Shown here piece by piece: positions 3,688-56,367 of a stretch of DNA of 64,000 nucleotides (position 1 is its first letter; the number at the start of each line of letters is the position of its first letter). The translations under genes were made by a program, and so were the position numbers. The notes beneath the pieces are model-generated. The model saw nothing but the letters and a program-made list of their open reading frames with translations. It did not search any database and was not told where the DNA came from. Source of the DNA: Parcubacteria group bacterium ADurb.Bin159 (lineage in GTDB: Bacteria; Patescibacteriota; Patescibacteriia; UBA2591; MWDC01); contig MWDC01000001.1 of NCBI GenBank assembly GCA_002070355.1, positions 67,994 to 131,993 on the forward strand, read 5' to 3'.

Positions 3688-3740
3688 TGCCCCTTGAGGC
3701 AATTTTCTTTTTGGATATCGCTTAAAAATCTCTTCTCGAT

Positions 3741-3834
3741 GGGGACAGTCCCCAAAAAACGACCCCAAAAAGCTCGCATCAATATTAGCTTTTCTAGAAG
3801 AACTTTTGAATTTAGGGCTGTGAACCCTAAATTT
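3741..3834 (-). repeat. Repeat family A, copy 0 (inverted orientation, divergent)
   Basis: Contains ggggacagtcccc and aatttagggctgtgaaccctaaattt. Aligns with the reverse complement of the other A copies. Confidence 0.6.
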
Positions 3835-4043
3835 ATTTCTTTTAATATTTTTTATTATTTTTGCCATAATTTATTATTTATCCTAAAGTAAAAATGTTTT
3901 TTAACCCTAAAACTTTATTTTACACATTTACATATTCAATTTGCCTTATTTTCAAGATACTCTGTTTTCGAGATTTGTCAATTTATATTTGAGATACAAC
4001 AAAAACAGGGCTTTCCTTGTTTTTACTAATTTTAAAAGGCGCC

Positions 4044-6205: not shown

Positions 6206-6309
6206 AGCTAAATAAAAATTTAGGGTTCACAACCCTAAATTTGAAAATTCGTCCTAAAAGCCAATGTTTATGCGGGTTTGCGGAGGTCGATTTTTGGGGA
6301 CTATCCCCC
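6206..6309 (+). repeat. Repeat family A, copy 1
   Basis: aaatttagggttcacaaccctaaattt (10-bp stem hairpin) ...ccaatgtttatgcgg... ggggactatcccc palindrome. Confidence 0.7.
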
Positions 6310-7625: not shown

Positions 7626-9113
7626 TTAATATGCTTTGGCGAAAATAACTTTTTTTGATGCTCTTTTCCCACAAACAACACACTTGCTCTCTTCGCTTTT
7701 TTCTTTCTCATCTAATATGCATCTAATGGTGGCGGTAGTTTCTTCTTTTACTTTGTCCTCGCATTTTGAATCACCACACCAATAAGCATTTATAAAACCA
7801 TCTTGTTCGCTTTTAGTAAATCTGTTTTTTAAATCTTTATAAGAATTTACCTGAACAGTTAATTCTTGGCTATATTGTTTAGCGCGATTATAAAGATTTA
7901 ATTGTATATCATCTAATAAAATCTTAATCTCTTTAATTAAAGTGTTTATGTGAATTTCTGTTTTTACTCCTGTATCACGCCTTACTGCTACCACAGTATT
8001 ATTTTTAACATCACGAGGGCCAATCTCAATCCGCAAAGGCGTGCCTTTCCTCTCCCATTCATAAAATTTTGAACCCGGCCGTTTATCTCTCTCATCAATA
8101 TAAACATTATAATTTGTTTCTGAAATTATTTTGTCGGCTGTTTCCTTGGCTTTAGCCACAATAGGTTCTTTCTCGTAATTCTTATCCCAAATAGGCACTA
8201 TAACTATAGGAGTAGAAGCAATTTTAGGCGGCAAAATTAATCCTTTATCATCACTATGTGTCATTATTAATGCTCCAATAACCCTTGTGCTCATTCCCCA
8301 GCTTGTTTGCCAAACATATTGCTCTAACCCCTTTTCGTCGGCAAATTTAATATTAAAAGCTTTAGCAAAATTTTGACCAAGCATATGAGAAGTGGCTAAT
8401 TGCAATGCTTTGCCGTCCTGCATCATTCCTTCTATGGTGGCGGTATAAACCGCCCCGGCAAATTTTTCATTTTCAGTTTTTATCCCCGTAATTGCCGGAA
8501 TGGCCAAATAATCCTCCACAAAATTATGATAAAGTTCTAATATATCTCTGGTCATTTCGTCTGCTTCTTTTTTTGTAGAATGAGCAGTGTGCCCTTCTTG
8601 CCATAAAAATTCTGTAGTTCTTAAAAATGGTCTTGTTCTTAATTCCCAACGCATTACATTAGCCCATTGATTTAATATCAAAGGAAGATCTCGATAAGAT
8701 TGTATCCATTTGGCATAGGTGTGATAAATTATCGTTTCCGAAGTTGGTCTAATAATATACGGTTCCTCTAACAATCCAGCGGGAATTAGTTTTTTATCCT
8801 TTGCCACTAAACGATGATGTGTAACCACAGCGCATTCTTTGGCAAATCCCTTTACATGTTCAGCCTCTTTTTCAAAAAAACTTTTGGGAATAAGAAGGGG
8901 GAAATAAGCGTTTCTTACCCCTTTTGATTTAAGCATAGCGTCTAAAATTTTTTGCACATTCTCCCATATAGCATAACCGTTTGGTTTAAAGACAATGCAA
9001 CCCTTTACCGGTGAATTCTCGGCAAGTTCAGCTGCTTCTATTATGTCCAAATACCACTCTGAATAATTTTTAGACCGCGGAGTAATTTTGTATTGACATT
9101 CTTCTTGTTCCAT
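7626..9113 (-). CDS. proS: Proline--tRNA ligase, archaeal/eukaryotic-type class II
   Basis: The YSEWY N-terminus, class II motifs, and the C-terminal zinc-binding ...CVVCGK... end characteristic of the short ProRS type. Confidence 0.85.
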   Translation of the reverse strand: MEQEECQYKITPRSKNYSEWYLDIIEAAELAENSPVKGCIVFKPNGYAIWENVQKILDAMLKSKGVRNAYFPLLIPKSFFEKEAEHVKGFAKECAVVTHHRLVAKDKKLIPAGLLEEPYIIRPTSETIIYHTYAKWIQSYRDLPLILNQWANVMRWELRTRPFLRTTEFLWQEGHTAHSTKKEADEMTRDILELYHNFVEDYLAIPAITGIKTENEKFAGAVYTATIEGMMQDGKALQLATSHMLGQNFAKAFNIKFADEKGLEQYVWQTSWGMSTRVIGALIMTHSDDKGLILPPKIASTPIVIVPIWDKNYEKEPIVAKAKETADKIISETNYNVYIDERDKRPGSKFYEWERKGTPLRIEIGPRDVKNNTVVAVRRDTGVKTEIHINTLIKEIKILLDDIQLNLYNRAKQYSQELTVQVNSYKDLKNRFTKSEQDGFINAYWCGDSKCEDKVKEETTATIRCILDEKEKSEESKCVVCGKRASKKVIFAKAY

Positions 9114-10299: not shown

Positions 10300-10380
10300 T
10301 TTTCAAATTTATTTAATTTTTGTTTTTAAATCTTTTAAATATTACTTTTAACTTTTCGGCGATGGCTGTATAACTTTATA

Positions 10381-10407
10381 TTATAAAATTTTATAAAGTT
10401 CGTCAAC
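10381..10407 (-). promoter_or_regulatory. Candidate sigma-70 promoter (minus strand TTGACG-N15-TATAAT) inside the extended repeat
   Basis: Reverse complement reads TTGACGaactttataaaatttTATAAT, about 85 bp upstream of the 9154..10299 start. The same motif recurs at 22699-22725. Confidence 0.4.
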
Positions 10408-10429
10408 ATCTAATAATGTATAAAAAGAA

Positions 10430-10522
10430 AAATTTAGGGTCCACAACCCTAAATTTAAAAATTCGTCCTGAAAGCCAATGTTAATGCAATGTTTCTGTGG
10501 TCTCTTTCTGGGGACTGTCCCC
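10430..10522 (+). repeat. Repeat family A, copy 2. An ~90-bp extension upstream (10340-10429) is shared with copy 5.
   Basis: Near-identical to copy 3 (12098-12201). Confidence 0.75.
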
Positions 10523-10580
10523 AAATAGTGTGCCTCTTGATAGTGTCCTGTTTAGCGCCCCCATTCGTTTATTTCTTTTT

Positions 10581-12097: not shown

Positions 12098-12201
12098 AAA
12101 GATTTTAAAAATTTAGGGTCCACAACCCTAAATTTAAAAATTCGTCCTGAAAGCCAATGTTAATGCAATGTTTCTGTGGTCTCTTTCTGGGGACTGTCTC
12201 C
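12098..12201 (+). repeat. Repeat family A, copy 3
   Basis: About 90 nt identical to copy 2. Confidence 0.75.
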
Positions 12202-12225: not shown

Positions 12226-14124
12226 TTATACAACAAATTGACTATTATATAAAGAAGCATAAAAGCCATTTCTGGAAATCAGTTCTTCATGTGTCCCCTG
12301 CTCAACAATACTGCCATCACGAATTGCTAAAATTAAATCAGCATTTCGAATAGTGGAAAGCCTGTGAGCAATAATAAAACTTGTTCTACCTTTCATCATT
12401 TTATCCATTGCTGCCTGAATAATTATTTCTGTACGGGTATCAACAGAGCTTGTTGCTTCATCTAAAATTAACATTGGAGCATTAGCCAGCATTGCCCGAG
12501 CTATAGTTAAAAGTTGTTTTTCACCCTGAGAAATATTATCGGCTTCCTCGCTAATTTGCATTTGATAACCTCCTGGCAGAGTACGAATAAAATGATCGGC
12601 ATAAGCTGCCTCTGCGGCTTTAACTACTTCTTCATGAGAGACGTTTTCCTTGCTATAAGCAATATTCTCTTCAATTGTGCCATTAAATAGCCAAGTATCC
12701 TGCAATACCATACCAAAAAGTTTTCTTACATCAGACCGCTTCATTTTTCTAATATCTATCCCATCAATTTTAATAGCTTCGCTATTAACATCATAAAAAC
12801 GCATCAAGAGATTGACTATAGTTGTTTTGCCTGCTCCAGTTGGTCCTACAATAGCAACTTTTTGGCCGGGCTTAATAGTAACGTTAAAATCTTTAATAAT
12901 CATTTTCTCGGGCGTATAACCAAAAAACAAATGGATAAAATCTACTGCGCCCTTTACTTCTTTTAAAATAACAGGATTAGGAGTTTCTGGCGCTTCATCT
13001 GCTTCTTCTAAAAACTCGAATACTCTTTCTGCAGCAGCTGCTGTAGATTGAAGCACATTAGCAATGCTAGCAGTTTGGGTAATAGGGCGAGTAAATTGAG
13101 TCATATATTGTATAAAGGCCTGAATACTACCAATGCTCATCCTCCCCTGAATAGCCAACCATCCTCCCAGTACTGAAATAGCAACAAATCCACAATTCTC
13201 AATAAAATTTATTATAGGATGAAGAAGACTTGAAAAAAAGTGAGATTTCCAAGCGTTCTCATAAAGTTTATTGTTAATTCTATGAAAAATAGAGATTGAC
13301 CTCTGCTCGCCATTAAAAGCTTTCACTATTGTATGACCGGAAAACATCTCTTCAATGTGGCCATCAATTTTCCCTAATGAAACTTGGTGATTAAAAAAAT
13401 ATTTTTGCGATTTTTTAACAACAAAACTTGTTAAAAAGAAACTAAGAGGCAAAATTACGACTGCCACTAATGTTAGCTGCCAACTTATTATAACCATCAT
13501 AACAAGAATACCGATAATAGTAGTAGTGGCACTAACAATTTGAATTAAACTCTGGTTAAAGCTTTGGCTTACTGTATCTACATCGTTTGTTACACGACTC
13601 AAAATATCACCATGGCTTCCTTGGTCGAAATAACGCAATGGTAATTGATTTATTTTTTGAGAAATATTCTTTCTTAAATTAAATGCTACTTTTTGAGTAA
13701 CCCCTGCCATAATCCACCCCTGAAGATAGCTAAACAAGACGTTTAATAAATAAATTCCAATTAGTATTTCTATTAAACGAATAATTGCCGCAAAATCGAT
13801 ACCACTCCTTTGAGAAAAATTGGAACCTCCTGTCTGTATGCCCGCAACAATTTTATTAGTAATGTCCCCTAATATTTTAGGAGTAATAACGCTAAAAATA
13901 GTACTAAGTATTGCAAACACTAAAACTAAAATAATTGAAACATGGTATGGCTTTAAATATTTTATAAGTTTACGCATCGTGCCTTTAAAATCTTTGGGCT
14001 TTTCAACTGCTCCACGCATTCCTCTACCACGACCTCTGCCCATACCAAAACCACCTGGCCTTGGCCTTTTAGGAGGTAAATTAGTTGGAAAATTATTTGG
14101 TTTTGAAACAGATTCTTTAGACAT
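12226..14124 (-). CDS. ABC transporter permease/ATPase (exporter half-transporter) with an N-terminal Gly/Arg-rich tail
   Basis: Six TM helices followed by an ABC NBD (GPTGAGKTT, LSGGQ-like signature, Walker B). N-terminus is GGFGMGRGRGRGMRG. Confidence 0.8.
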   Translation of the reverse strand: MSKESVSKPNNFPTNLPPKRPRPGGFGMGRGRGRGMRGAVEKPKDFKGTMRKLIKYLKPYHVSIILVLVFAILSTIFSVITPKILGDITNKIVAGIQTGGSNFSQRSGIDFAAIIRLIEILIGIYLLNVLFSYLQGWIMAGVTQKVAFNLRKNISQKINQLPLRYFDQGSHGDILSRVTNDVDTVSQSFNQSLIQIVSATTTIIGILVMMVIISWQLTLVAVVILPLSFFLTSFVVKKSQKYFFNHQVSLGKIDGHIEEMFSGHTIVKAFNGEQRSISIFHRINNKLYENAWKSHFFSSLLHPIINFIENCGFVAISVLGGWLAIQGRMSIGSIQAFIQYMTQFTRPITQTASIANVLQSTAAAAERVFEFLEEADEAPETPNPVILKEVKGAVDFIHLFFGYTPEKMIIKDFNVTIKPGQKVAIVGPTGAGKTTIVNLLMRFYDVNSEAIKIDGIDIRKMKRSDVRKLFGMVLQDTWLFNGTIEENIAYSKENVSHEEVVKAAEAAYADHFIRTLPGGYQMQISEEADNISQGEKQLLTIARAMLANAPMLILDEATSSVDTRTEIIIQAAMDKMMKGRTSFIIAHRLSTIRNADLILAIRDGSIVEQGTHEELISRNGFYASLYNSQFVV

Positions 14125-15873: not shown

Positions 15874-16144
15874 TACAATAAATTAATCTATTAGTTTAAT
15901 AAAAATTTCTTTCTTCGTCAACAATGTTTATAGTAAAAAAATAACTCCACAAATAGTTCAGCGGTAGGCAAAAATTCGAAAAGTTATCCAAAAAGATTGC
16001 CTCGCTTCGCTTGGGCTCGGCAGAAGTAAATTCTCACCGCCTCAAATAAAACAAAAACAAAACCCTTGCCAAAATATGGTAAGGGGTCAATTTTCTCCGA
16101 ATTGTGAACAATATTAGAACAACTATTTCTTCTACTAATAATAA

Positions 16145-16237
16145 AAATTTAGGATCCACAACTCTAAATTAAAAAATTCGCCCTAAAAGCCAATGTTAAT
16201 GCGGTATTCTCGTAGTCTCTTTCTGTAAACTGTCTCC
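16145..16237 (+). repeat. Repeat family A, copy 4 (left flank of the defence island)
   Basis: aaatttaggatccacaactctaaatt...ccaatgttaatgcggtattctcgtagtctctttctgtaaactgtctcc. Confidence 0.7.
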
Positions 16238-16431
16238 AAATGCGTCCCCGAATGCAAAATTATAAAATTATTCTTCTGTTTTTTGTAAAATCAATCTCAT
16301 AATTAAACCTGATAAATATAAAAACGCTTCCGTATCTTCCAATTAAAAAGACAAAAGCAATGATAACAAAGATTTTCAAACCCCACTTAAAAGCTAATGT
16401 CTCAACAAAACCTTCTAAACCATAAAAACAA

Positions 16432-17124
16432 TTATTTCTTTTGATTAGTTGTATAATCACATTTCGGGTAATTAGAGCATCCGTAAAATTCTCCAAATTT
16501 GCCAGTTTTTTTCACTAAATTTCCGCCACAGCATGGGCAAATTCGAGACGCTTCTCTTGCCTTATCTTTATCCTTTTTAGCCATTTTGATATACCGAATA
16601 AGTTTGTATCCATCTATAAGTTCAATTGGCTTATCTTCAGCAAATTTCTCAGCTTCAAGTGTAAATTTATTTGTGGTAATAAAATATGCCTTTCCATTAG
16701 CAATATGGTCAGCCAAAGCACCATAGAAATCTCTGACATCGCCAACCGTTACCTCTGAGGTTATAAACTTTTTGCATTGAATGTAGCTTTTTACTCCGTC
16801 TTTTTCAATAATAACGTCAATGCCTCCGTCGTGCGATCCGCCGACTGCTTTAGATTTGTAGCCAAGCCGCGAAAACAAATCGGCAATATAATCCTCAAAT
16901 TCCGATGGCTTCATGCCACGAAGCCATTGCAATAGATCACGATCCGAACGCCATTTTTCTCCTTTTCTGAATTTTCGGCGAATATGCCAATTATCAATTT
17001 CCAAATTAAGCCAATAAAAGAATAATTTCATAACAACAATCGCCAATAAAACTGCCCAAAGCGGCCATAGCTTCCATAAAATCGGTAGTAAATTTTTAAT
17101 TATTTCCCAGAAATTAATTTGCAT
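16432..17124 (-). CDS. Membrane-anchored Mrr-cat (PD-(D/E)XK) restriction-endonuclease-like protein with a C-terminal topoisomerase-type C4 zinc ribbon
   Basis: N-terminal TM helices, then DLFSRLGYKSKAVGGSHDGGIDVIIEKDGVKSYIQCKKF (Mrr_cat signature D..D..QCK), then CPCCGG...CSNYPKC. Confidence 0.65.
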   Translation of the reverse strand: MQINFWEIIKNLLPILWKLWPLWAVLLAIVVMKLFFYWLNLEIDNWHIRRKFRKGEKWRSDRDLLQWLRGMKPSEFEDYIADLFSRLGYKSKAVGGSHDGGIDVIIEKDGVKSYIQCKKFITSEVTVGDVRDFYGALADHIANGKAYFITTNKFTLEAEKFAEDKPIELIDGYKLIRYIKMAKKDKDKAREASRICPCCGGNLVKKTGKFGEFYGCSNYPKCDYTTNQKK

Positions 17125-17130
17125 ATAATT

Positions 17131-20100
17131 TTAGTTTATAATCTCCTCCAATCTCCAAAAAGTGCTTCCACCTTCACGAATCAAATCGTCGATAAGTTTA
17201 TAAGTATCACCTTTTGTTTCGGCATTTTCATAGAGAGTCTTAATTGCCCCAAACCATTCCTCGTCATACATAAATGGCATGCGCATTTTACCACCTCGCA
17301 CATCACCTTCAAGTAAAGAAAGACGGGCAATCTCCAACGTATCTTTAGGTGCAGCTTTAGCCAATTCATTGATAGACTTAGTGAGAGCGTAATCCCATTC
17401 CAAAACACCCTTAGTTTTTTCTAAGGTCGCTTTTATTTGTCCAGCTAACCAGGCTGGTTCAAAGATTTTTTTCTCAAGATTCATCCAAAATCCAAACGCA
17501 ACAAATAGCTTCGGGTCGTCATAATTCTTAAGCAACCATTCCCAAAATTCAGTTAATCTTTTTTTAATTGCTGGGTCTTTTTTCAACTGCTCATTTACAC
17601 GATCATCATCGCCAGAAATGAACATCCGCCCGATAAAACTGATAAACTTGCTTTGCCGTTCAACATCTCGCTTCCAGAATTTCTTGAAAAGAGAATGATC
17701 AAACCCGAATTTTTCATGATAGACAACAAACGCCAACGCCAAATGAACAGCTATTCCTTCCTTTAGTTCTTTGAAATATTTGCGTTTTGAGTCCTCGTTG
17801 CCAGTCAAACTTAAGCCACGCTCATATAATTTTTGGAATTCTTGATCAAAGAATATTTCCTCATAAAGATTATTAGCAAGATATCCTTCCCAAGCAGCAA
17901 GATAAAGGTGTTTTTTAGTCGCTTCTTCTGGAAAAATTTGAGTCAAAAGCCCATGTATCCAATCTCTGTCACGGAAGTAGAAAGATGGTAGATAATATCC
18001 AAACATAAACATTAAGGCACGAGTATCTTCTTTTTTTAAGACTCTCTCATAGAGCTCCTTAATGTCTACGCTAATTTTAATCTTATCATCTTTTGAAAAT
18101 TGCTTTCCGTCTTGGTAAACAAACAACACAAAAGCCTGAAACGCCCGACCACGCACCGAATTAATCGCCATCGTAAACGGATCACTAACATAATTTTCTT
18201 CCTTATCGCCAGGGGAATGGGTCTTTATCGTCGCTGTTCCTAGCTCTTCGTCTTGTGGTTCTGGATCGGGGTATACTAAAAGATAGCTGAGAATCTCGAA
18301 AAGCTGACTGCGGTATTTGGAGAAATCTATAAGAATTTTACCGTCGTTTTCACTCAATAATTCTTGCAGGACATCCGTCATCACCGAGTGCACTCCAGTC
18401 CAACTCAAAAGCCATGCGTCAAACTTCTCTCGTTCCCTGATTTTATGGTTAAAGGCTTTTGCAATACCCGAATCCTTAATAGCAATAAAAACTTCTATCA
18501 GTTTATCCCACTGGATATCTGCCGCCTTTGTTTTGTCAGCACGTATAGCTTCTTGAATGCCTCGAAAAAACGAGTAAGTATAATGCTCGTCGAGAACATC
18601 CCTCTCAAAAAATAAACTGGCGTTCTGGATATAATCCTGTAATCGCTTAGCAATATCAACACGCAATTGTTCCTCTACGCCTTTAGCATTTAAGGGATTC
18701 AAAAAATCATCACTTGTGTTCTCTTTGCTCAAAGCTTCTGGCTTCCAGTCATTTCTTAATTTTTTGGCAATGTCAGCAATGGAAAGTTTACTAAATTCCT
18801 CTTGTGAAACTGCAGCTCTTGGTTTTACAAAACCGCTCACTATTTTTCCAATGGACGGTTCGGGTTCAAAAGTAGGATCACATTTTTTACCGAATATTTT
18901 TTCACAATCTTCTTTTTCTTCTGAAGTCAAAGAGTCATAAATACTGGAAAGAATCTGCCAGCCATCGCGCCTATACCATTGTTCTTCTTTTTTATCTTCA
19001 CGACTTTGTCCAAAATGCTTAAAGACATTCGATACATATTCACGCTGATAATCGAAATTGAGGACATTAAAGCTCTGTTTAAGGGCTTTCTTGTACTCTG
19101 TTCCAGATTCAATCTCATAATAATGTTTACCATCCTCCATCACCTCAAATAATTTAAAAAAGGACGCCTGTAATTCTGCCTGAAAAGCAACGGGACACAA
19201 ACTCAAAACAAAAAGACGCAGTCGCCACATCAACCTGCTTTCTGGTAAGGTTTGAATATATTTCTTATAAACCTCTCTGACCAATTCTGATTTGTCACAA
19301 TTATTGCCAATTAGTCTTTGACTGAGTGCTTTAATGGTCACTACTAAATCTTTGACGTTTTCTTGATCTGAATAATGTTTTTCATCGCCCAATTCCAAAG
19401 AAAAAAAATCAACATCAAAAAGATAAAAAGGGTCATGAATCGGAAATACTTCATTCTTCTCGGCGTCTTCGCCCAAACGCACGATTGCCGCCATCGTTCT
19501 TGTTGTAATCTCTAATGCTTTTTCAAGATATTGATCGCCTACAGCCACTAAATACTCAAAGACTTTCGTGTAAGAAAGGTCTGTGAAATAAAAAGGATTA
19601 TCCGATGGATAATCACGAGAAGTTGGTTTTGTTTCTTCTTTTGCTCTCACAGTAAGCACTGCTTCGGCAAGGACCAAGATATTCTCATAATCCTTAGCAG
19701 CGGCAAGTGTTTGGAATATTTTTTTATAATCAAATCCCCATTGATTAAATACGCTCATCAACCGCACCCAACCATCATCACGAATTTTCGGCACTATTCT
19801 CGCTAACTGCTCCGCTGGCAGAGAACTGCAAATTCTCAAAAATTGATCGACAATTTCGGGATTAAAATTATCTTTTGGGATAGAAACCGAAAGCATAATA
19901 TCTACCACTTCTTTCGCTTTTTTCTCCGCTATTCTTACAAGATAATTCAGTTCTGGGGTTGTTCGATATCCATATCTCGTTGGATCGTCGACTTTCTGTT
20001 TAATCACATCTAAGAGCCCATTATTCCAAAGCCAATCAAGCCAATTCTCATCTGCTTTTGTAAAAAAATATTGTCGTGCATCAAGATTTAAACCAATAAG

Positions 20101-20145
20101 TTCTCGAATTTTCTCTGGATCAAATTTTGCTGATTGTTTATCCAT
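17131..20145 (-). CDS. Large (1004 aa) hypothetical protein; no ATPase, nuclease or other recognisable motif
   Basis: Long uninterrupted ORF packed 5-6 bp from its neighbours in the R-M/Mrr operon. Predicted mostly alpha-helical. No Walker A. Confidence 0.6.
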   Translation of the reverse strand: MDKQSAKFDPEKIRELIGLNLDARQYFFTKADENWLDWLWNNGLLDVIKQKVDDPTRYGYRTTPELNYLVRIAEKKAKEVVDIMLSVSIPKDNFNPEIVDQFLRICSSLPAEQLARIVPKIRDDGWVRLMSVFNQWGFDYKKIFQTLAAAKDYENILVLAEAVLTVRAKEETKPTSRDYPSDNPFYFTDLSYTKVFEYLVAVGDQYLEKALEITTRTMAAIVRLGEDAEKNEVFPIHDPFYLFDVDFFSLELGDEKHYSDQENVKDLVVTIKALSQRLIGNNCDKSELVREVYKKYIQTLPESRLMWRLRLFVLSLCPVAFQAELQASFFKLFEVMEDGKHYYEIESGTEYKKALKQSFNVLNFDYQREYVSNVFKHFGQSREDKKEEQWYRRDGWQILSSIYDSLTSEEKEDCEKIFGKKCDPTFEPEPSIGKIVSGFVKPRAAVSQEEFSKLSIADIAKKLRNDWKPEALSKENTSDDFLNPLNAKGVEEQLRVDIAKRLQDYIQNASLFFERDVLDEHYTYSFFRGIQEAIRADKTKAADIQWDKLIEVFIAIKDSGIAKAFNHKIREREKFDAWLLSWTGVHSVMTDVLQELLSENDGKILIDFSKYRSQLFEILSYLLVYPDPEPQDEELGTATIKTHSPGDKEENYVSDPFTMAINSVRGRAFQAFVLFVYQDGKQFSKDDKIKISVDIKELYERVLKKEDTRALMFMFGYYLPSFYFRDRDWIHGLLTQIFPEEATKKHLYLAAWEGYLANNLYEEIFFDQEFQKLYERGLSLTGNEDSKRKYFKELKEGIAVHLALAFVVYHEKFGFDHSLFKKFWKRDVERQSKFISFIGRMFISGDDDRVNEQLKKDPAIKKRLTEFWEWLLKNYDDPKLFVAFGFWMNLEKKIFEPAWLAGQIKATLEKTKGVLEWDYALTKSINELAKAAPKDTLEIARLSLLEGDVRGGKMRMPFMYDEEWFGAIKTLYENAETKGDTYKLIDDLIREGGSTFWRLEEIIN

Positions 20146-20150
20146 ATTAC

Positions 20151-20756
20151 TTATTTACCTCCATTTATATCTTCTATTAGCTGAGGATTTATTCTCAAAA
20201 CCTCATCAAGCATTTGATGCACATCAAGCTGCCTTGTCAATGCCTTATTCATAATTTTTTCAAACTCCACTAAAAGTTTTTCAAACTCAACCTTATTAAA
20301 AGAAGAAAAATCAAAATTTTTATCCCATTGAGGATCAACTCCATGATGCGTTATATCATTAAGTTTTTTCCACAGAGGTTCTACTTTACTGCTATAGAAA
20401 TTTTTATCAAAACTTTCATTAGAACTTTCATCAAAATTTTTATCAACCGTTACAGAGCCAAAATTTTTAAACGCATCCATTCTCTTACTTGAAACTTGTT
20501 TCACCTGAATACTTAAGAATGGATAAAGAATCTCTCGTAAGGAGTTTGCCGCTTGGGCAATACGATCGGGATTACTTTTACATTCTTCCCTAATAGCAAA
20601 AACGGCACCTCGAAACATATCTGAAGGCTTTATTTTTAGTCCTCCTCGCTCATGCCACTCATCTAGGCGTCTACATAAATTTTCTTGTCCATCGGTTAAA
20701 CGCACGGGTGGGAGAGCATTATTTCCTATAGATTGTAGTGATGCATCACCGCCCAT
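20151..20756 (-). CDS. Hypothetical 201-aa protein with a DKNF(D/Y)xSS triple repeat
   Basis: ORF-track protein with 3-5 bp spacing to the restriction endonuclease upstream and the 1004-aa ORF downstream. Confidence 0.5.
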   Translation of the reverse strand: MGGDASLQSIGNNALPPVRLTDGQENLCRRLDEWHERGGLKIKPSDMFRGAVFAIREECKSNPDRIAQAANSLREILYPFLSIQVKQVSSKRMDAFKNFGSVTVDKNFDESSNESFDKNFYSSKVEPLWKKLNDITHHGVDPQWDKNFDFSSFNKVEFEKLLVEFEKIMNKALTRQLDVHQMLDEVLRINPQLIEDINGGK

Positions 20757-20759
20757 AAA

Positions 20760-21665
20760 TTATATATCTCTCAAGATATTCCTTAAAAAACCTTTTTTGA
20801 TGAAATTAATATTTAAGACATAATCCATTTGTTCAATTGCCTTCCTGATTTGATTTTGTCCTTGTCGCCAGCCATTTCCATCGGTAATCCAAACAAATTG
20901 CCAGCCACTATTTTGGAGCTCTCTTTGCCGATTTATGTAGGCATCAACAATCTCTTGAGGTTTTGAACCCTGCCCGCTGTAAAAATTAACTTCCATTGAT
21001 AGAAGTTTTGTTCCTTTTTTGATCGCAAAATCGGGAGTTCTATACCGGAGTTTCTTCGGGATTTTTACACCGCGTTCTTCGAATTTACTGAACTTCCCCT
21101 TAGGGAATATCTCAATATTCTTAAATTCTTTGGTGATATTTTGAAGTTCTTCCTCTACCACTTTTTCCATAAAACTACCACTTCGATTCTTACGTGCATT
21201 GCTATCCAAACCTACTTCAACCCCTAAGAGATAATCGTTAAGAACTCGAATGATTTTGAATAACTCTTGGATACCACTTTTTTTTACAAATTGAATAAAT
21301 TTCTTGATGTCACTTGGGGTTAAATCTTTTGAACAATCAAAACAACATACTTGATTTTTGCTTATATCCTCTAGTACATCAAATTTCTCATCACGCATTG
21401 CAACAAGAAGTGGTAAAACCCTTGCTGTCTTAGGGTATTCTGTTAAAATTTTCTCTAAATCTTTATCAAAATTTTTGGATTGAGTAAGTGTTCCCAAAAT
21501 TCCAATTTCAACTTTGTATTTCTCTACATTTGATTTAACCTTTTTCCAATTTACAAAAAAATCGTAAGTGCGATTAGTAGATAATAGTGAGCCAATAAAT
21601 GCTTCGTTAATCTGCTCAATATTAGTAAAACCAAAAAATGATTTATATGTTTGTATTTTTGCCAT
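20760..21665 (-). CDS. Type II restriction endonuclease, DpnII/MboI family (predicted GATC specificity)
   Basis: GVEVGLDSNARKNRSG and EVNFYSGQGSKP...WITDGNGW...LNINF align with R.DpnII motifs recalled from memory. Confidence 0.7.
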   Translation of the reverse strand: MAKIQTYKSFFGFTNIEQINEAFIGSLLSTNRTYDFFVNWKKVKSNVEKYKVEIGILGTLTQSKNFDKDLEKILTEYPKTARVLPLLVAMRDEKFDVLEDISKNQVCCFDCSKDLTPSDIKKFIQFVKKSGIQELFKIIRVLNDYLLGVEVGLDSNARKNRSGSFMEKVVEEELQNITKEFKNIEIFPKGKFSKFEERGVKIPKKLRYRTPDFAIKKGTKLLSMEVNFYSGQGSKPQEIVDAYINRQRELQNSGWQFVWITDGNGWRQGQNQIRKAIEQMDYVLNINFIKKGFLRNILRDI

Positions 21666-21670
21666 ATTGC

Positions 21671-22513
21671 TTAAATTAATTTAATAAACATTTGCTTGCG
21701 CTTAATTAAGTCTTTGAGTCGCTTTTTTGAAAGTTCAAGATATTTTTTCTCATTATCAATCCCTATAAATTTTCTATCGTATAGAATAGCAACTAAACCA
21801 GTAGTAGAGCTCCCTGCGAAAGGATCGAGTATTATGTCGCCAGGATTTGTGCTTGACAGAATAATTCTTTTCAAAAGCTCCATTGGCTTTTGTGTGGGGT
21901 GTTTACCAAATATTTTTTCTTCTGGCTTGGGAGTCCCTATTGCCCACACCGAACGCATTTGTTTATTTTGCCGATGGATAAGGTCGTTTCTAAACGCACG
22001 CATCTGCTCGTAATTGAACACGTGCTTTGCTTTCTTTTCTTTACGTGCCCACAATAATGTTTCGTGGCTGGCAGTAAAATAACGGCAACTTAAATTGGGA
22101 GAAGCATTGGGTTTATACCAGGAGATATCATTTAAGATATGATAACCGCTTAATTGAAGTGCGTAACCACATTGATAAATTGAGTGATAAGTCCCACTAA
22201 TCCAAATTGTACCGTAAGGTTTAAGAACTCGACGGCAAGCTTGAACCCAAGTAATATGAAAATCTAAATCCTTTTGAAAACCTTTGCTTTTGTCCCAATC
22301 TCCCTTATTAACACTTACACGTCTGCCAGCGTGAACGCTAAAACCACCATTAGAAAGATTATACGGTGGATCAGCAAAAATCATATCAATCGAATTGTCT
22401 GGAAGCTGTTTCAAAATCGACAGATAATCTGAACAGTATAAAACAAAATTACCTTCAGAAAAATAAGGTTTTTTCTTGATAGAAGATAGAACTTTTTGAG
22501 AATTAGTTTCCAT
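21671..22513 (-). CDS. Beta-class N6-adenine DNA methyltransferase, M.DpnA (DpnIIB)-like
   Basis: Motif IV IFADPPYNLSNGG precedes motif I DPFAGSSTTG. Strong similarity to M.DpnA through ...NLSCRYFT...KHPTQKP.... Confidence 0.8.
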   Translation of the reverse strand: METNSQKVLSSIKKKPYFSEGNFVLYCSDYLSILKQLPDNSIDMIFADPPYNLSNGGFSVHAGRRVSVNKGDWDKSKGFQKDLDFHITWVQACRRVLKPYGTIWISGTYHSIYQCGYALQLSGYHILNDISWYKPNASPNLSCRYFTASHETLLWARKEKKAKHVFNYEQMRAFRNDLIHRQNKQMRSVWAIGTPKPEEKIFGKHPTQKPMELLKRIILSSTNPGDIILDPFAGSSTTGLVAILYDRKFIGIDNEKKYLELSKKRLKDLIKRKQMFIKLI

Positions 22514-22698
22514 AAATATGTCTTTTTTTCAACTTGGATTTATTAGTTTATTTTTTCCTGTCTACTGTTTATTATAACAAATAATTCCTAAAAATATAAT
22601 TAAAGAGGCCTTAATTTTTGAAAAATTATTGAATTGTCTTACTGATTAATTTCATTTATATTGCTTTTAACTTTTCCGTGGTGGTCGTATAACTTTAT

Positions 22699-22725
22699 AT
22701 TATAGAACTTCATAAAGTTCGTCAA
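22699..22725 (-). promoter_or_regulatory. Candidate promoter of the defence operon (minus strand TTGACG-N15-TATAAT)
   Basis: Same promoter-like sequence as 10381-10407; lies in the extended copy of repeat A upstream of the MTase gene. Confidence 0.35.
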
Positions 22726-22751
22726 TATCTAATAATGCATAAAAAATAAAA

Positions 22752-22843
22752 AAATAGGGCTCACAACCCTAAATTAAAAAATTCGTCTTAACAGCCAATG
22801 TTAATGCGGTATTCTCGTAATCTCTTTTTGAGGACTGTCCCCA
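22752..22843 (+). repeat. Repeat family A, copy 5 (right flank of the defence island); the extension at 22660-22751 is shared with copy 2.
   Basis: aaatagggctcacaaccctaaatt...ccaatgttaatgcggtattctcgtaatctctttttgaggactgtcccc. Confidence 0.7.
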
Positions 22844-22919
22844 AATGCCAAATCTAAGCCCAATCATTTCAGCTTTGATTGGGCTTTATTTTTTGGCTCT
22901 AAAATGATAAAATTAATTT

Positions 22920-23684
22920 ATGAATATGCCGAAAGTAAAATTTACTGACATTCCATTATCCAAAGAAACTGATTGGATGTATGGTTTTTTGTTCAAAAAT
23001 GAATGGGATTGGGGAAGATATATTTTAAAAAAACATCCTAAAATTAAAAAAGTTTTTTCTTATAAGACGGAAGCAGAACGAGTTAATTTTTTAAGAAATT
23101 ATATAATTCAATTTAAAAAAGATAATCAAGAACTAATAGAAAAAAGTAAAACGGAATACCAAGAAGTATGGAAGGAAATGGAAAAAGATTTTTTTATTAT
23201 TCTGTCAGAAATTTTAAAAATTGACTGGCCTCAAAATAGAAAAGTGATAAAAGCAATGCTCTCGATTAATCCAATTTGCCCTCGTTTTTTAAACGATTGG
23301 AGTTTTTCTATTTTCTATAATTATAAAAAGATAAGTTATGCAATGGAAGTAATTATGCATGAATGCTGTCATTTTTTATATTTTGAAAAATGGAAAAAAG
23401 TTTTTCCAAAAACAAACCCAAAAAAGTTTGAGGCACCATGCTTGGAATGGCATTTAAGTGAAATTTTAGCACCAATTATTTTAAATGACCTTAGGATTAA
23501 AAAATTATTGGGACGAAAAGCAGATTTTTACGAAGAACATAAAAAAATAAAAATTGGGAATAAAACCGTTCCTGAATATTTTAACGATTTATACAAAAAA
23601 AATAATATAGATAAAAATTTTGACGAATTCCTAAAAGAATCTTATAAGGCAATCAAAAAGAATAAGGTGCTATTTGAAATATAA
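22920..23684 (+). CDS. Hypothetical protein with an HExxH-like motif (MHECCH)
   Basis: 254-aa ORF; possible metallopeptidase-like zinc site. Otherwise uncharacterised. Confidence 0.4.
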   Translation: MNMPKVKFTDIPLSKETDWMYGFLFKNEWDWGRYILKKHPKIKKVFSYKTEAERVNFLRNYIIQFKKDNQELIEKSKTEYQEVWKEMEKDFFIILSEILKIDWPQNRKVIKAMLSINPICPRFLNDWSFSIFYNYKKISYAMEVIMHECCHFLYFEKWKKVFPKTNPKKFEAPCLEWHLSEILAPIILNDLRIKKLLGRKADFYEEHKKIKIGNKTVPEYFNDLYKKNNIDKNFDEFLKESYKAIKKNKVLFEI

Positions 23685-23750
23685 CAGAAGTATAGAAAAA
23701 GATAAAAATTTAATAAATATTTCAATCCGAAATTTGGCAAAATAAATCGT

Positions 23751-23785
23751 TGTTTACACTTTTTATAGGTGATAAAGTGTAAACA
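23751..23785. promoter_or_regulatory. Perfect 12-bp inverted repeat (tgtttacacttt-N11-aaagtgtaaaca), operator-like
   Basis: Seen directly in the sequence, in a 550-bp non-coding stretch. Confidence 0.35.
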
Positions 23786-24008
23786 TTTATACGAAAACAA
23801 ATTTCTGCCAAACAATTGCTTGTGTCTAGAAAAGCAATAAAAGGGAAGTAAAATTTTTAACAATAAAAACAAAGGAGTAAACAAAATGGGCAAAAAATCT
23901 TATTGAAAAGCTTATAATGAACTTACAACAGAAAGCCGAGGAAGTGCAAAGGTCGTTTTGAATTAGCGAAAGAGGATTACTAATAAAGGGCGAAAATCTA
24001 ATGTTTAA

Positions 24009-24052
24009 AATGAAAACACCGTTTGATACGGTGTTTTAAACTTCAAAGTGTT
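24009..24052. repeat. Hairpin repeat C, copy 1
   Basis: aatgaaaacaccgtttgatacggtgttttaaacttcaaagtgtt (10-bp stem). The second copy is at 24959-25002. Confidence 0.6.
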
Positions 24053-24229
24053 CTAATTTACTCCCCATACCGGATGCATTTAAAATGGTTAACTGGGAAA
24101 AAACAAGAAAAAAATTAGGACTTTTTGAGACAGAATCTTGGACATGGGAACCAACCAAAGCTTCAAAAGAACTTATTATGTCTGGTTGTGAAGTATCTAT
24201 AAATAACCTACTACCGCTTTTGAAATATA

Positions 24230-24733
24230 TTAATTGATTAGGAATTTTAAGAATTTCGGTTTAATCTCTTCTTTCGGTTTAGTCTCTCCTGGCTTTATTC
24301 TTTGGGCTTCTGCTATCCTATTATTTGAAATGCCTTCGCCTTCTTGAACTTTTCCAGAAAATCGTCCTTCGTAATCTCTGATGATTCTTTGGAAGGCGCT
24401 TTTTCCTTCAATTCTGGTTTCTCCGCCGACGAATTCTCCTTTTCCTTTTGTTGATTTAATGATTGTTGTTTCATACTTTTGTTTTAATTTATTTATATTT
24501 TCAGCGAGATTCGACCCTGAGTCAAAAATGACTGCCTTATTCTCGCTAACAATTGTTCTATATTGTAAACCAACATCATCAAGTGCTTTTCTTAAATTTT
24601 CCATTGTCTTTATTTCAGAAATTTCTATTGCATAAAGAGTATCAATCCCGGCTCCATCTACTATAAATGGAATAACAGATTTTTGATATGAAACTAACCC
24701 CTCCTTGCTGCAGAATATTTTAATGTCTCCCAA
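24230..24733 (-). CDS. Hypothetical protein
   Basis: 167-aa ORF between the two copies of hairpin repeat C. No recognisable motif. Confidence 0.35.
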   Translation of the reverse strand: MGDIKIFCSKEGLVSYQKSVIPFIVDGAGIDTLYAIEISEIKTMENLRKALDDVGLQYRTIVSENKAVIFDSGSNLAENINKLKQKYETTIIKSTKGKGEFVGGETRIEGKSAFQRIIRDYEGRFSGKVQEGEGISNNRIAEAQRIKPGETKPKEEIKPKFLKFLIN

Positions 24734-24958
24734 TCTATCTTCTTATCATAGATTGTCATTAAAGAATTTTCTGCTCCGAATTGTGAACAACGTTATAAGG
24801 ATAATTCAACAGCAAGCTGAGTATATTTATATACTAGATTTAAATTCACAGGCTCAATAATATGTTATCACCTTTTACCCCACCCTGCTACTCATTATAT
24901 TATTATAACACAAAACTCCCAGAAATGGAAGTTTTGTGCCAAAGTGGCAATCTACAGA

Positions 24959-25002
24959 AATGAAAACACCGTTTGATACGGTGTTTTAAACTTCAAAGTG
25001 TT
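24959..25002. repeat. Hairpin repeat C, copy 2
   Basis: A 44-bp repeat matching 24009-24052 except for the final base; sits immediately next to the tRNA-Asn 3' end. Confidence 0.6.
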
Positions 25003-25008
25003 TAAAGT

Positions 25009-25084
25009 TGGCTCCGGGGGTGGGACTCGAACCCACGACAGGCTGCTTAACAGGCAGCTGCTCTAACCACTGAGCTACCCCGGA
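25009..25084 (-). tRNA. tRNA-Asn (GTT), CCA encoded
   Basis: Manual cloverleaf: acceptor UCCGGGG/CCCCGGA, D-arm GCUC-AGUGGUUA-GAGC, anticodon loop CU-GUU-AA, T-arm GUGGG-UUCGAGU-CCCAC, discriminator G plus CCA. Confidence 0.85.
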
Positions 25085-25139
25085 ATAATAAAAATTCAAA
25101 ATTGGGATAATTCCGCTTTGCGGAATTTTTTATTTATTT

Positions 25140-26375
25140 TTAAAGATTATCAAAATCTTGCTCCTTTTCACCTTCTTCCCCTATTTCTTTAAGTTCTCCA
25201 TCTTTTTGAACGGTTTTTTGAAAATAATCTTCAATTTTCTTTAATTTTTCCAATGTACGAATGCGTTCTAACGCCTTAGCCTCAATTTGGCGAATCCTTT
25301 CTCGAGTTACATGGAAAACTGCTCCCACTTCTTCTAAAGTATGGGAAACGCTGTCAGTCAAACCAAAACGCATATCTAAAATTTTTCTTTCCCTTTCCGG
25401 CAAGTCAACTACTATTTCTTTAACATAATCTCTTAATAATCTTAAAGCGGCAACGCGGTCCGGGCTTATTTGTTTAACATCTTCCACTAAATCCCCTAAT
25501 TCTGTTTCTTTGTCATCATCTTTACCTACATTCATTTCCAAAGACATTGTGCTTTGCGATGCCTTAAGCAAACGCTCTGTTTCGTCTATAGGAAGACCAA
25601 CTTCAGAAGCTATCTCTTCAGAAAAGGGCTGTCTGCCAAGTTGCTGAGTCAGCCAACGTTCAATCTGATAAATCTTTCCCAAAATTTCCACAATATGAAC
25701 AGGGATTCTAATGGTTCTTGATTGGTCGGCTAAAGAACGAGTAATCGCTTGTTTAATCCACCAAGTGGCATAAGTGGAAAATTTATAACCTTTTTTCCAA
25801 TCATATTTTTCTACCGCTCGAAACAAGCCAACATTCCCCTCCTGAATTAAATCTAAAAAACTTAAGCCGTAACCGGTAAATTTTTTAGCAATACTTACTA
25901 CTAAACGGAGATTCGCTTCAACTAATTTTTGAGTCGCTTCTTTGTCCCCTTTGTCTTTTCTTTTGGCTAATTCAACTTCTTCTTGCGGCGTTAAAAGAGG
26001 GACGCGGCCAATTTCTTTCAAATACATTTGAATAGAATCTGCTGATAATTGAGTTAAGTCAAAAAAAATCTCTTCTCCTTTAATTTTTTCTTTTTTTGAA
26101 GAAACAAGCATTTCGTCCTCCGTTTCTTCTGTGGAAATTCCCATTGAATCCACTTTGTCTAAAAATTCTTCAAATTTATCTAAATATTTTTCTATTTTAG
26201 GAAAAGCATAAAAAAATTCTTCGGTAGTTAAAAAACCTCTTTGTCTCCCTTTGGTTAATAGCTTTTCCGCTTCTTCTTCTGGCCATTTTGCCGAAGAACC
26301 TCTTTTTTTTACTTGTTTAATATTTTTTTTCTTAAAAGATTTTTTTGTTTTTTTCTTTTTTAAAACTTTAGTCAT
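25140..26375 (-). CDS. rpoD: RNA polymerase sigma-70 factor
   Basis: [26 protein letters not shown] (region 2.4/3) and region 4 ([24 protein letters not shown]). Confidence 0.85.
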
Positions 26376-31863: not shown

Positions 31864-32382
31864 AGCATCCTCCTTTATTTTATTTTTTTTTTAATTTTAA
31901 AGAACATCTGTTTGAGCGTTAACGCCCAATTATAATAAAATTTTATTTTAAAAAAGAGGGTTGGATTTATGTCCCCCTCCCGCATTCTATCTCTGTAAAA
32001 CAGGCCTCTTTTTTTATTTTAATTTTAATTTAACTTTTGATTAAAGTATAAAAAAATTTCGTATTTTGTCAATAAAAAAAATTTTAATGGGGTCAGACCC
32101 CCAAAATGGATCGCTTGAAACCCTTTATTTAAGCGGGTTCCCAAGGGAAAATTTAAATTTGGCACGATTTTGATTGATTTGAAAAATGGCAAAGCATTGT
32201 GGATAACATTAGAATATACTAGATGACCACAAGAGAATTAATTGCGATGCCAATCTATGTTTAATATCCCACTACGCTACTTATAAGTCTTTAAATTTAG
32301 CTTTATTATATCAGATTTTACCCCCCTTGTCACTCACTATTATTTTAAATAATAAAACATTAATTCTTCCATAAAAGAAATG

Positions 32383-56204: not shown

Positions 56205-56294
56205 AATTTAGATTATAACAAAAAAGAAAAAAAGAAAAAGGGCAACTTAATGTTGCTCTTATTAAATACAATGTTTCCCCTCTTTTTTGTTTAG

Positions 56295-56367
56295 AGGGGT
56301 TGGCTGGAATCGAACCAGCATGAGCAGGCTTTCGCGCCTACTGCGTTGACCACTCCGCCACAACCCC
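56295..56367 (-). tRNA. tRNA-like gene with canonical acceptor, D and T arms but a non-canonical (6-nt) anticodon loop; isotype undetermined
   Basis: Acceptor GGGGUUG/CAACCCC, T-arm GCUGG-UUCGAUU-CCAGC. The central hairpin UAGGC-GCGAAA-GCCUG does not give a standard 7-nt loop. Confidence 0.5.

Follow-up and report, generated by a model that had tools for sequence, protein, structure and literature searches.

Background and locus

In T4-type phages, cassettes are exchanged at repeats, termed PeSL (promoter-early stem-loop), that consist of a promoter and a stem-loop (Arbiol et al., 2010, PMC2839356; Comeau et al., 2014, PMC4122927). Genomic islands at tRNA genes normally duplicate the 3′ part of the tRNA (PMC4383910), and the polyvalent proteins of phages and conjugative elements have been described together with solo versions of their domains (Iyer et al., 2017, PMC5512222). 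We examined a locus that has likenesses to all three, a 950-bp unit between two copies of a hairpin repeat, H1, beyond the tRNA-Asn gene of the uncultured Parcubacteria group bacterium ADurb.Bin159 (GCA_002070355.1). The DNA analyzed was a 64,000-nt stretch of contig MWDC01000001.1 (the window), with the region studied at about 23685-25084. We lean toward reading the unit, from H1 copy A to copy B, as a non-functional mobile-element remnant in a strain-variable, recombination-prone spot, where repeats bearing terminator and promoter signals serve as joints. Its features and immediate surroundings, read along the minus strand, are:

25009-25084, minus strand: tRNA-Asn(GTT), the final gene of a conserved dnaG-rpoD-tRNA-Asn block (ARAGORN; Rfam tRNA, 72 bits; synteny in relatives)
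24958-25002, minus strand: H1 copy A, a 45-bp repeat with a terminator-like stem-loop at 24963-24987, predicted to end the rpoD/tRNA-Asn transcript
24906-24941, minus strand: second hairpin (hp2), with a 16-bp stem (-20.6 kcal/mol) whose 3′ arm enters TGtTATAAT (24902-24910)
24874-24901, minus strand: M motif, AATATAATGAGTAGCAGGGTGGGGTAAA, 28 bp, a junction repeat bounding a 735-bp cassette indel
24781-24873, minus strand: leader between M and o176, with a TTGAGC-N17-GTATAT promoter-like site (putative promoter)
24230-24759, minus strand: o176, pseudogene for a 176-aa solo polyvalent-protein domain, with a 1-nt deletion at ~24698; homology to polyvalent proteins reaches 24777
24085-24237, plus strand: 50-aa open reading frame (ORF), convergent with o176 with an 8-nt overlap, a 5′-replaced derivative of a 65-aa gene
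24008-24052, minus strand: H1 copy B, the same 45 bp as copy A, closing the cassette on the side away from the tRNA
23685-24007, no strand assigned: stretch without a credible gene, holding a 12-bp inverted repeat and a short ATG ORF

Haplotypes and module boundaries

The window was compared with related contigs and loci, referred to below by L-numbers. One contig, JAKJDU010000001.1 (GCA_022705795.1), matches it at 99.99% identity, and a same-species set of about 25 near-identical metagenome contigs from more than 10 samples was gathered through exact-protein look-ups. The next-closest relatives have rpoD genes only 52-66% identical, and their synteny with the window ends at the tRNA. The family-level comparison set comprised 80 loci, from relatives that carry the labels Falkowbacteria or Parcubacteria (Patescibacteria). 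On the minus strand the gene order is dnaG, rpoD, tRNA-Asn and then the hairpin; rpoD-tRNA-Asn synteny is kept in many relatives, and the chromosomal context of the cassette consists of dnaG, rpoD, tRNA and ABC transporter genes.

The cassette is found with different flanks in different lineages. The module in L002 is 93% identical to that of the window; on its left lie M and a further repeat, H2, its right side runs into a PEP-utilising enzyme gene, and homology with the window stops exactly at the edge of the 45-bp H1 core. The L003 and L004 modules are 83% identical and have yet other flanks, and the cassette is missing from the 80 family-level loci. All same-species contigs that reach the site carry the cassette and both H1 copies.

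These contigs differ in what lies between the H1 copies. The short form, that of the window, runs tRNA, H1, hp2, M, frameshifted o176, small ORF, H1. The long form (L006, L009, L012, L001 and L017) has an additional 735 bp with o192, an ORF for a 192-aa membrane protein; this indel has M at its bounds, and o192 stands between two copies of H2. The copy numbers at the locus are two for H1, two for H2 and three for M. Both forms are present in samples JGI 3300028564 and 3300028570 and ENA ERZ27249271-75. Between the short form and L006, 28 differences fall within ~430 bp (24510-24942) and a single one in the next 1000 bp, the block of single-nucleotide polymorphisms (SNPs) starting 16 nt after H1 copy A. 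Within this block, which includes the 5′ half of o176, L006 resembles the L002 lineage, and the right-hand breakpoint is different in L001. These mosaic SNP patterns are marks of repeated homologous exchange. In L017 the end of the module is joined via H1 to sequence that normally follows copy A, as expected of an H1 x H1 circle or of a tandem array, though the junction could equally be a chimera.

The H1 repeat

H1 is an exact direct repeat of 45 bp, or of 52 bp at 94% identity; none of 100 shuffles matched it, and neither a third copy nor any other att-like copy occurs elsewhere in the 64-kb window. The original prediction, made from the window sequence, had reported a duplicated 44-bp hairpin, aatgaaaacaccgtttgatacggtgttttaaacttcaaagtgtt (24009-24052 and 24959-25002), whose second copy abuts the tRNA-Asn 3′ end. 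The duplication is real, extends to 45 bp, and lies 6 nt from the end of the tRNA. Each hairpin has a 10-bp stem (4 GC pairs) and a 5-nt loop, is followed on the minus strand by UUUUCAUUU, and was flagged as terminator-like, with a folding energy of -15 to -16 kcal/mol (z ~ -4).

Intrinsic (Rho-independent) terminators are recognized by a G+C-containing stem-loop and a U-run just after a gene, and H1 has all of these. Six of the eight relatives inspected have a hairpin and T-run at the same position after tRNA-Asn, unlike H1 in sequence; because relatives have their own unrelated hairpin and T-run there, copy A can be said to occupy the terminator position. H1 is thus first of all a predicted intrinsic terminator. 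This agrees with one half of the earlier suggestion that the hairpins act as att-like or terminator duplications, while the att half fares poorly. The 30-nt left flanks of copies A and B show no more similarity than shuffles do (p ~0.59); the copies share nothing significant on that side of the core, so the duplication includes no tRNA sequence. Moreover, M and H2 also bracket cassette DNA, with no link to the tRNA. By eye the repeat seemed to continue into the 3′ end of the tRNA, but this proved not significant.

No inverted repeats were found at the ends of the 950-bp unit beyond the arms of the hairpins themselves. An insertion sequence or miniature inverted-repeat transposable element (MITE) was rejected for want of terminal inverted repeats and because a 45-bp repeat is too long for a target-site duplication; to our knowledge it far exceeds known target duplications. 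Rfam, run at gathering scores on the whole window and in E-value mode on 23600-25200, found tRNA only and no known RNA family; a Phe-leader match stayed below threshold (26 bits, against a 55-bit cut-off).

The M motif, hp2 and H2

The string TGtTATAAT (24902-24910), which the 3′ arm of hp2 enters, resembles an extended -10 element and may act as a promoter. M itself consists of a -10-like hexamer and then GAGTAGCAGGGTGGGG, with the consensus AATATA[G/A]TAAGTAGCAGGGTGGGGTAAA among its copies, and every M motif sits after a terminator-like hairpin. L003 has two copies and L004 one, which follows the module; M is absent from the rest of the window and from the 80 family-level loci. A degenerate M precedes the second H2 copy. 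M and the leader together are 89% identical to those of L003, a higher value than for the o176 ORF itself. Inspection ruled out M as an attC, dif or tRNA-like sequence, because neither symmetry nor a cloverleaf is present. Upstream of the MlaE operon, at 32317-32340 on the minus strand, ATAGTGAGTGACAAGGGGGGTAAA bears a weak resemblance to M (6 mismatches in 24); about one chance match of this kind is expected in the DNA searched.

H2 is a perfect 39-bp repeat that flanks o192, ends 2 nt before its ATG, and forms a hairpin with TATAAT in the loop. It reads TTGTCC-N17-TATAAT, the -10 being inside the loop; the H2 and hp2 sites are absent from our promoter scan, which requires a -35. The leader contains a Shine-Dalgarno-like site, AAGGTGAT, and a possible upstream ORF of 19-22 codons (..NLNLVYKYTQLAVELSL*). 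Haplotype differences within this upstream ORF are synonymous, and in L003 its frame is fused to the truncated o176.

These motifs invite comparison with PeSLs, in which a terminator stem-loop and a sigma-70-like promoter are combined and the stem-loop may overlap the -10 box. Here, as read from sequence alone, the H2 loop holds TATAAT, hp2 runs into TGtTATAAT, and M starts with TATAAT. As with PeSLs, small ORFans of a variable region lie between the motifs, indels between close relatives have copies of them at their bounds, and one contig, L017, has a circle- or tandem-type junction, for which a chimera is an equally good explanation. In contrast to PeSLs, the setting is a Patescibacteria chromosome beside a tRNA and not the hyperplastic region of a T4-type phage genome; the sequences at the locus are unrelated to PeSLs, and they comprise only three motif types in few copies, with promoter and terminator activity and circle formation being putative. 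A looser likeness is to integron cassettes and clusters of attC sites lacking integron-integrases (CALIN), in that a row of small, mostly promoter-poor ORF cassettes is split by short structured repeats. However, no IntI-like ORF lies nearby, inspection of the repeats found neither R″/L″-L′/R′ symmetry nor the attC GTTRRRY core, and M is not palindromic.

The cassette genes and their decay

An orphan ORF of 167 aa had been noted between the hairpins (24230-24733, minus strand). The ORF exists, but it is the larger part of the frameshifted 176-aa gene o176, with its ATG at 24759, and it is no orphan: a profile run against 1.8 billion representative proteins found 395 matches. Four relatives in the databases span 166-176 aa and begin with MIIYDKKIDWE. 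Of the best 150 matches, 93 exceed 600 aa and carry the domain internally. The domain, of ~135 aa, lies mostly inside polyvalent proteins of 600-2800 aa from phages and mobile elements; the partner domains in these, from a scan of 14 large members, are Zeta_toxin, LPD38, Phage_Mu_F and the XkdF protease. Recurrence in large multidomain proteins beside known partner domains is what distinguishes polyvalent-protein domains, and the o176 domain shows it. Closest among the large proteins is one of 1150 aa with a zeta-toxin domain, whose residues 796-937 are 61% identical to o176.

Homology extends six codons upstream of the ATG (GAENSL versus DGAENSI), an in-frame stop lies 12 codons upstream, and the conserved N-terminal part of stand-alone family members (~210-290 aa) is missing. 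Because homology precedes the ATG and the N-terminal part is absent, o176 is read as a piece cut out of a larger gene. An AlphaFold run on 5 sequences (pLDDT 44) was set aside; the model made from 49 sequences has a pLDDT of 83, with values above 95 over residues 10-135, and is ferredoxin-like. The best viral fold matches were phage proteins of 1000-1200 aa, one of them named large polyvalent protein associated domain-containing, and PDB searches by sequence and by fold returned generic ferredoxin-like matches only.

Neither o176 nor the small ORF has a match in Pfam, PADLOC, PHROGs or NCBIfam. Phage and plasmid collections held no match to the DNA or to the o176 protein, and scans of viral contigs for the o176 family, M and H1 gave only one chance coding match. 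The genomic context of solo homologues was uninformative, one of them sitting on a phage-like contig of small ORFs. The gene is a solo, N-terminally cut copy of a phage or mobile-element polyvalent-protein domain. It resembles the solo domains of Iyer et al. (2017, PMC5512222) in occurring both within such large proteins, with a zeta-toxin-like kinase, MuF and LPD38, and as short solo proteins; it differs in that the domain is not among the Pfam LPD families and that this copy is truncated, frameshifted and chromosomal.

The 1-nt deletion in o176 is a real mutation, since it is present in every contig of the short haplotype across several independent samples. In L003 the gene has lost 78 nt at its 5′ end, including the start, and in L009 the ORF is split into 88 and 53 aa. 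Pairwise ratios of non-synonymous to synonymous substitution rates (dN/dS) among six versions are 0.6-1.0. These values and lesions indicate that o176 is under relaxed constraint and has been broken independently in three lineages.

In all cassette copies the small ORF is convergent with o176 and overlaps it by 8 nt. The more distant copies have 65 aa and a good promoter-like site of their own, and the ORF is open in three lineages, at 71% identity. The suspicion that the window contains a C-terminal gene remnant here was close to the mark, because the 50-aa ORF, a 5′-replaced version of the 65-aa gene, keeps only its last ~38 codons (homology starts at ~24122) and has no Shine-Dalgarno site or usable promoter upstream. 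Compared with L002 it has no synonymous and nine non-synonymous differences, and its family has three members among 5.8 billion proteins. The broader proposal of a degraded accessory segment is borne out by the frameshifted, near-neutral o176, by the different flanks in L002-L004 and by absence from family-level relatives; the same content is not conserved and syntenic in all relatives, and therefore the accessory reading stands.

Origin of the unit

From the observed repeats, haplotypes, mosaic SNPs, homology and decay we infer terminator and promoter activities and a route of recombination. The remnant would have lodged just past the terminator of the dnaG-rpoD-tRNA-Asn block, with a cargo of one polyvalent-protein gene fragment (a single solo domain, frameshifted) and a truncated 65-aa partner gene. 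H1 copy A would end the tRNA transcript and copy B the cassette, insulating it from the convergent 254-aa gene beyond. A piece of DNA with one H1 would have recombined into the chromosomal H1 within the 45-bp identity, leaving a direct repeat on each side, either by general homologous recombination or by a recombinase acting in trans. M and H2 would be used likewise as junction repeats, and exchange between copies would add or remove small ORFan cassettes among strains. We favor exchange between short regulatory repeats, the route shown for PeSL cassettes, over attL/attR sites because M and H2 act alike, an integrase is lacking, and H1 holds none of the tRNA.

Several points weigh against this interpretation. 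The comparison of the tRNA-Asn locus proposed with the original prediction covered at least 12 informative same-species contigs and found none with an empty site (tRNA-H1-right flank), so that insertion is deduced rather than observed. M turned up in this one cassette family only (the window lineage, L003 and L004), which leaves a general role for it unproven, and the terminator and promoter roles of H1, H2 and M are predictions only. The L017 junction comes from one 1158-bp contig and may be an assembly chimera through the 45-bp repeat. Repeats of 45 bp, and more so of 28 bp, are short for efficient RecA-type recombination, and a dedicated recombinase may therefore be needed. Finally, dN/dS values below 1, and ORFs that are open in several lineages, leave room for residual function of o176 and the 65-aa gene.

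A bolder proposal, worth entertaining though doubtful, is a PeSL-like system in Patescibacteria chromosomes, in which H1, H2 and M would be portable joints through which small ORF cassettes would leave as circles and return; a recombinase or regulator might act at M. If true, a bacterial chromosome would have a cassette exchanger that sits beside a tRNA and has no integrase.

We regard classic site-specific integration as unlikely. Here a tyrosine-type integrase would have acted on an attB downstream of tRNA-Asn, the H1 copies would be attL and attR, and later deletion of the integrase and most of the element would have left 0.9 kb. A perfect 45-bp direct repeat with unrelated flanks does resemble an att identity block, the cargo is from a mobile element, and the L017 junction is compatible with an excised circle. 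Furthermore, integration in relatives has a hot spot at tRNA-Asn. This tRNA is where several related contigs break off, and in three Falkowbacteria-like metagenome-assembled genomes the reading frames of large serine recombinase genes, on the opposite strand, enter its 3′ end; these loci look like small integrated elements using tRNA-Asn:

L028 11320-12570, minus strand: serine recombinase ORF, 416 aa, truncated, lacking the catalytic N-terminal domain
L035 11108-12925, minus strand: serine recombinase ORF, 605 aa
L052 11994-13673, minus strand: serine recombinase ORF, 559 aa, with a Zot-like P-loop protein nearby

The unit accordingly shares with Islander-type tRNA islands and prophage remnants (PMC4383910) a place immediately 3′ of a tRNA, a direct repeat around foreign decaying DNA, and a tRNA that recombinase-bearing elements use in relatives. 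It differs from them in lacking an integrase, in a repeat wholly downstream of the tRNA, in its size of 0.95 kb, and in that no empty site was seen. Against site-specific integration, every ORF in 16432-24759 was scanned and none is a recombinase, no integrase or remnant of one was found over 15.9-25.0 kb, and a tblastn search of the window for serine recombinase remnants, using the recombinases of the three relatives, matched only the tRNA. Of the features by which tRNA islands are recognized, neither an end-placed integrase gene nor a repeat from a displaced tRNA 3′ part is present: H1 lies clear of the tRNA, and the sequences to the left of its copies are dissimilar. The recombinases in relatives are of the serine type, and we know of no serine recombinases that leave long identical repeats. 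M and H2, with no link to the tRNA, behave like H1. Thus the earlier view of an element integrated at tRNA-Asn is supported by the mobile-type cargo and by the hot spot seen in relatives, but the integrase and the tRNA sequence in the repeat are lacking.

It is improbable that the two genes form a functional conflict module, for example of toxin/immunity or anti-defence type, on a mobile cassette that was merely inactivated in this strain. The two ORFs are paired in all five lineages, the 65-aa ORF has stayed open in three with its own promoter-like site at 71% identity, and the modeled o176 domain folds confidently (pLDDT 83) and is one of a large family of domains found in phage-host conflict proteins; the neighborhood, too, is a defence island, with Mrr-like, Dsr1-like and DpnII restriction-modification genes. 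On the other side stand the dN/dS of o176 near 1, its three independent disruptions, and its lack of the N-terminal part conserved in the ~210-290-aa stand-alone members. For the small ORF, synonymous changes are not in excess and 5.8 billion proteins yielded only three relatives. PADLOC, PHROGs, Pfam and NCBIfam again offer no match.

Least credible, and in our view very improbable, is that nothing moved, the H1 copies being two terminators of one sequence family kept identical by gene conversion and the cassette genes old residents: this genome does reuse terminator-bearing modules (a ~95-nt family with six window copies, described below) and all same-species contigs have the cassette, but the 93% identical L002 cassette has another right flank and breaks exactly at the H1 edge, L003 and L004 have other flanks again, the 80 family-level loci lack the cassette, the cargo is of mobile-element type and decaying, and the mosaic SNP block and cassette indel separate strains.

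The gene-free stretch and neighboring features

Beyond H1 copy B lie the stretch without a credible gene and the following features:

22920-23684, plus strand: gene for a 254-aa HExxH-motif protein, convergent to the tRNA block and outside the cassette
16432-22513, minus strand: defence-type block with a Mrr-like nuclease, a Dsr1-like protein, a 201-aa ORF, and a DpnII-type restriction enzyme and methylase
22744-22848, 16137-16243, 10339-10526, 6210-6308 and 12106-12201: copies of a dispersed ~95-nt repeat, all in the same orientation
3740-3843: inverted copy of the dispersed ~95-nt repeat

The perfect 12-bp inverted repeat that had been predicted at 23751-23785 is real (arms 23751-23762 and 23774-23785, 11-nt loop, -14.4 kcal/mol, z -4.0). 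It starts 66 nt past the stop codon of the 254-aa gene, where a terminator is expected, and is probably the terminator of that gene. A gene-free stretch, put earlier at 550 bp without ORFs, does exist, though it covers ~400 bp (23685-24084) and approaches 550 bp only when the 50-aa ORF is discounted. Within it AAAGGAG-N8-ATG (23887) starts a 6-codon ORF that would reach ~55 codons with one frameshift and one TGA repaired; to call it a pseudogene is speculative. No link was found between this stretch and the genes downstream of the 254-aa gene in other genomes.

The 254-aa HExxH protein has at least 318 homologues, at 63-81% identity, in many Parcubacteria lineages, and no match in Pfam, PADLOC, PHROGs or NCBIfam. 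Across lineages the DNA identity of its gene is 85-91% at the 3′ end, and the gene is often found on contigs of ~1 kb. L108 has it at 8001-8765 together with a second, partial copy at 13152-13235. In L111, too, it is convergent to a tRNA gene, in that case tRNA-Gly. The gene may be conserved in the candidate phyla radiation (CPR), or it may be something mobile.

Within the defence-type block, the Mrr-like nuclease has 230 aa and a topoisomerase-type zinc ribbon, a 1004-aa protein matches only the C-terminal two-thirds of PADLOC Dsr1, the SIR2 part not being detected, and the 201-aa ORF has no assigned function. The block is bracketed by two directly oriented copies of the dispersed repeat. This repeat family of ~95 nt (six window copies, 75-88% identity) forms two hairpins, and its minus-strand end is TTTAGGGTTGTGAACCCTAAA followed by a T-run, mostly directly past minus-strand stop codons. 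It has no Rfam match and could represent a small RNA or a MITE-like module with a terminator. Over one of its copies lies a second cluster of differences between the window and L006, 18 in 300 bp (22600-22900), in the intergenic DNA upstream of the DpnII methylase gene.

ARAGORN also called a 74-nt tRNA of undetermined identity at 56294-56367 (minus strand), with a 4-base anticodon 'cgaa' and an Rfam tRNA score of 51 bits. Its anticodon loop, GCGAAA(G), is missing the usual U33, and it could be an odd tRNA or a mis-fold.

Implications

The locus is a fairly ordinary object and not a new kind of system, and current understanding is not overturned by it. What had been a puzzling orphan ORF between hairpins can now be explained as a decaying phage or mobile-element fragment at a tRNA hot spot. 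The domain in question is a confidently folding one from phage polyvalent proteins, with at least 395 members, that has no entry in Pfam or PDB. In Falkowbacteria-like genomes, rpoD-tRNA-Asn is a recurrent landing site for elements with serine recombinases. If our reading of the unit is right, strain-level gain and loss of genes in a reduced CPR genome can use repeats of 28-45 bp that double as regulatory signals, a mode of exchange so far documented mainly in T4-type phages.

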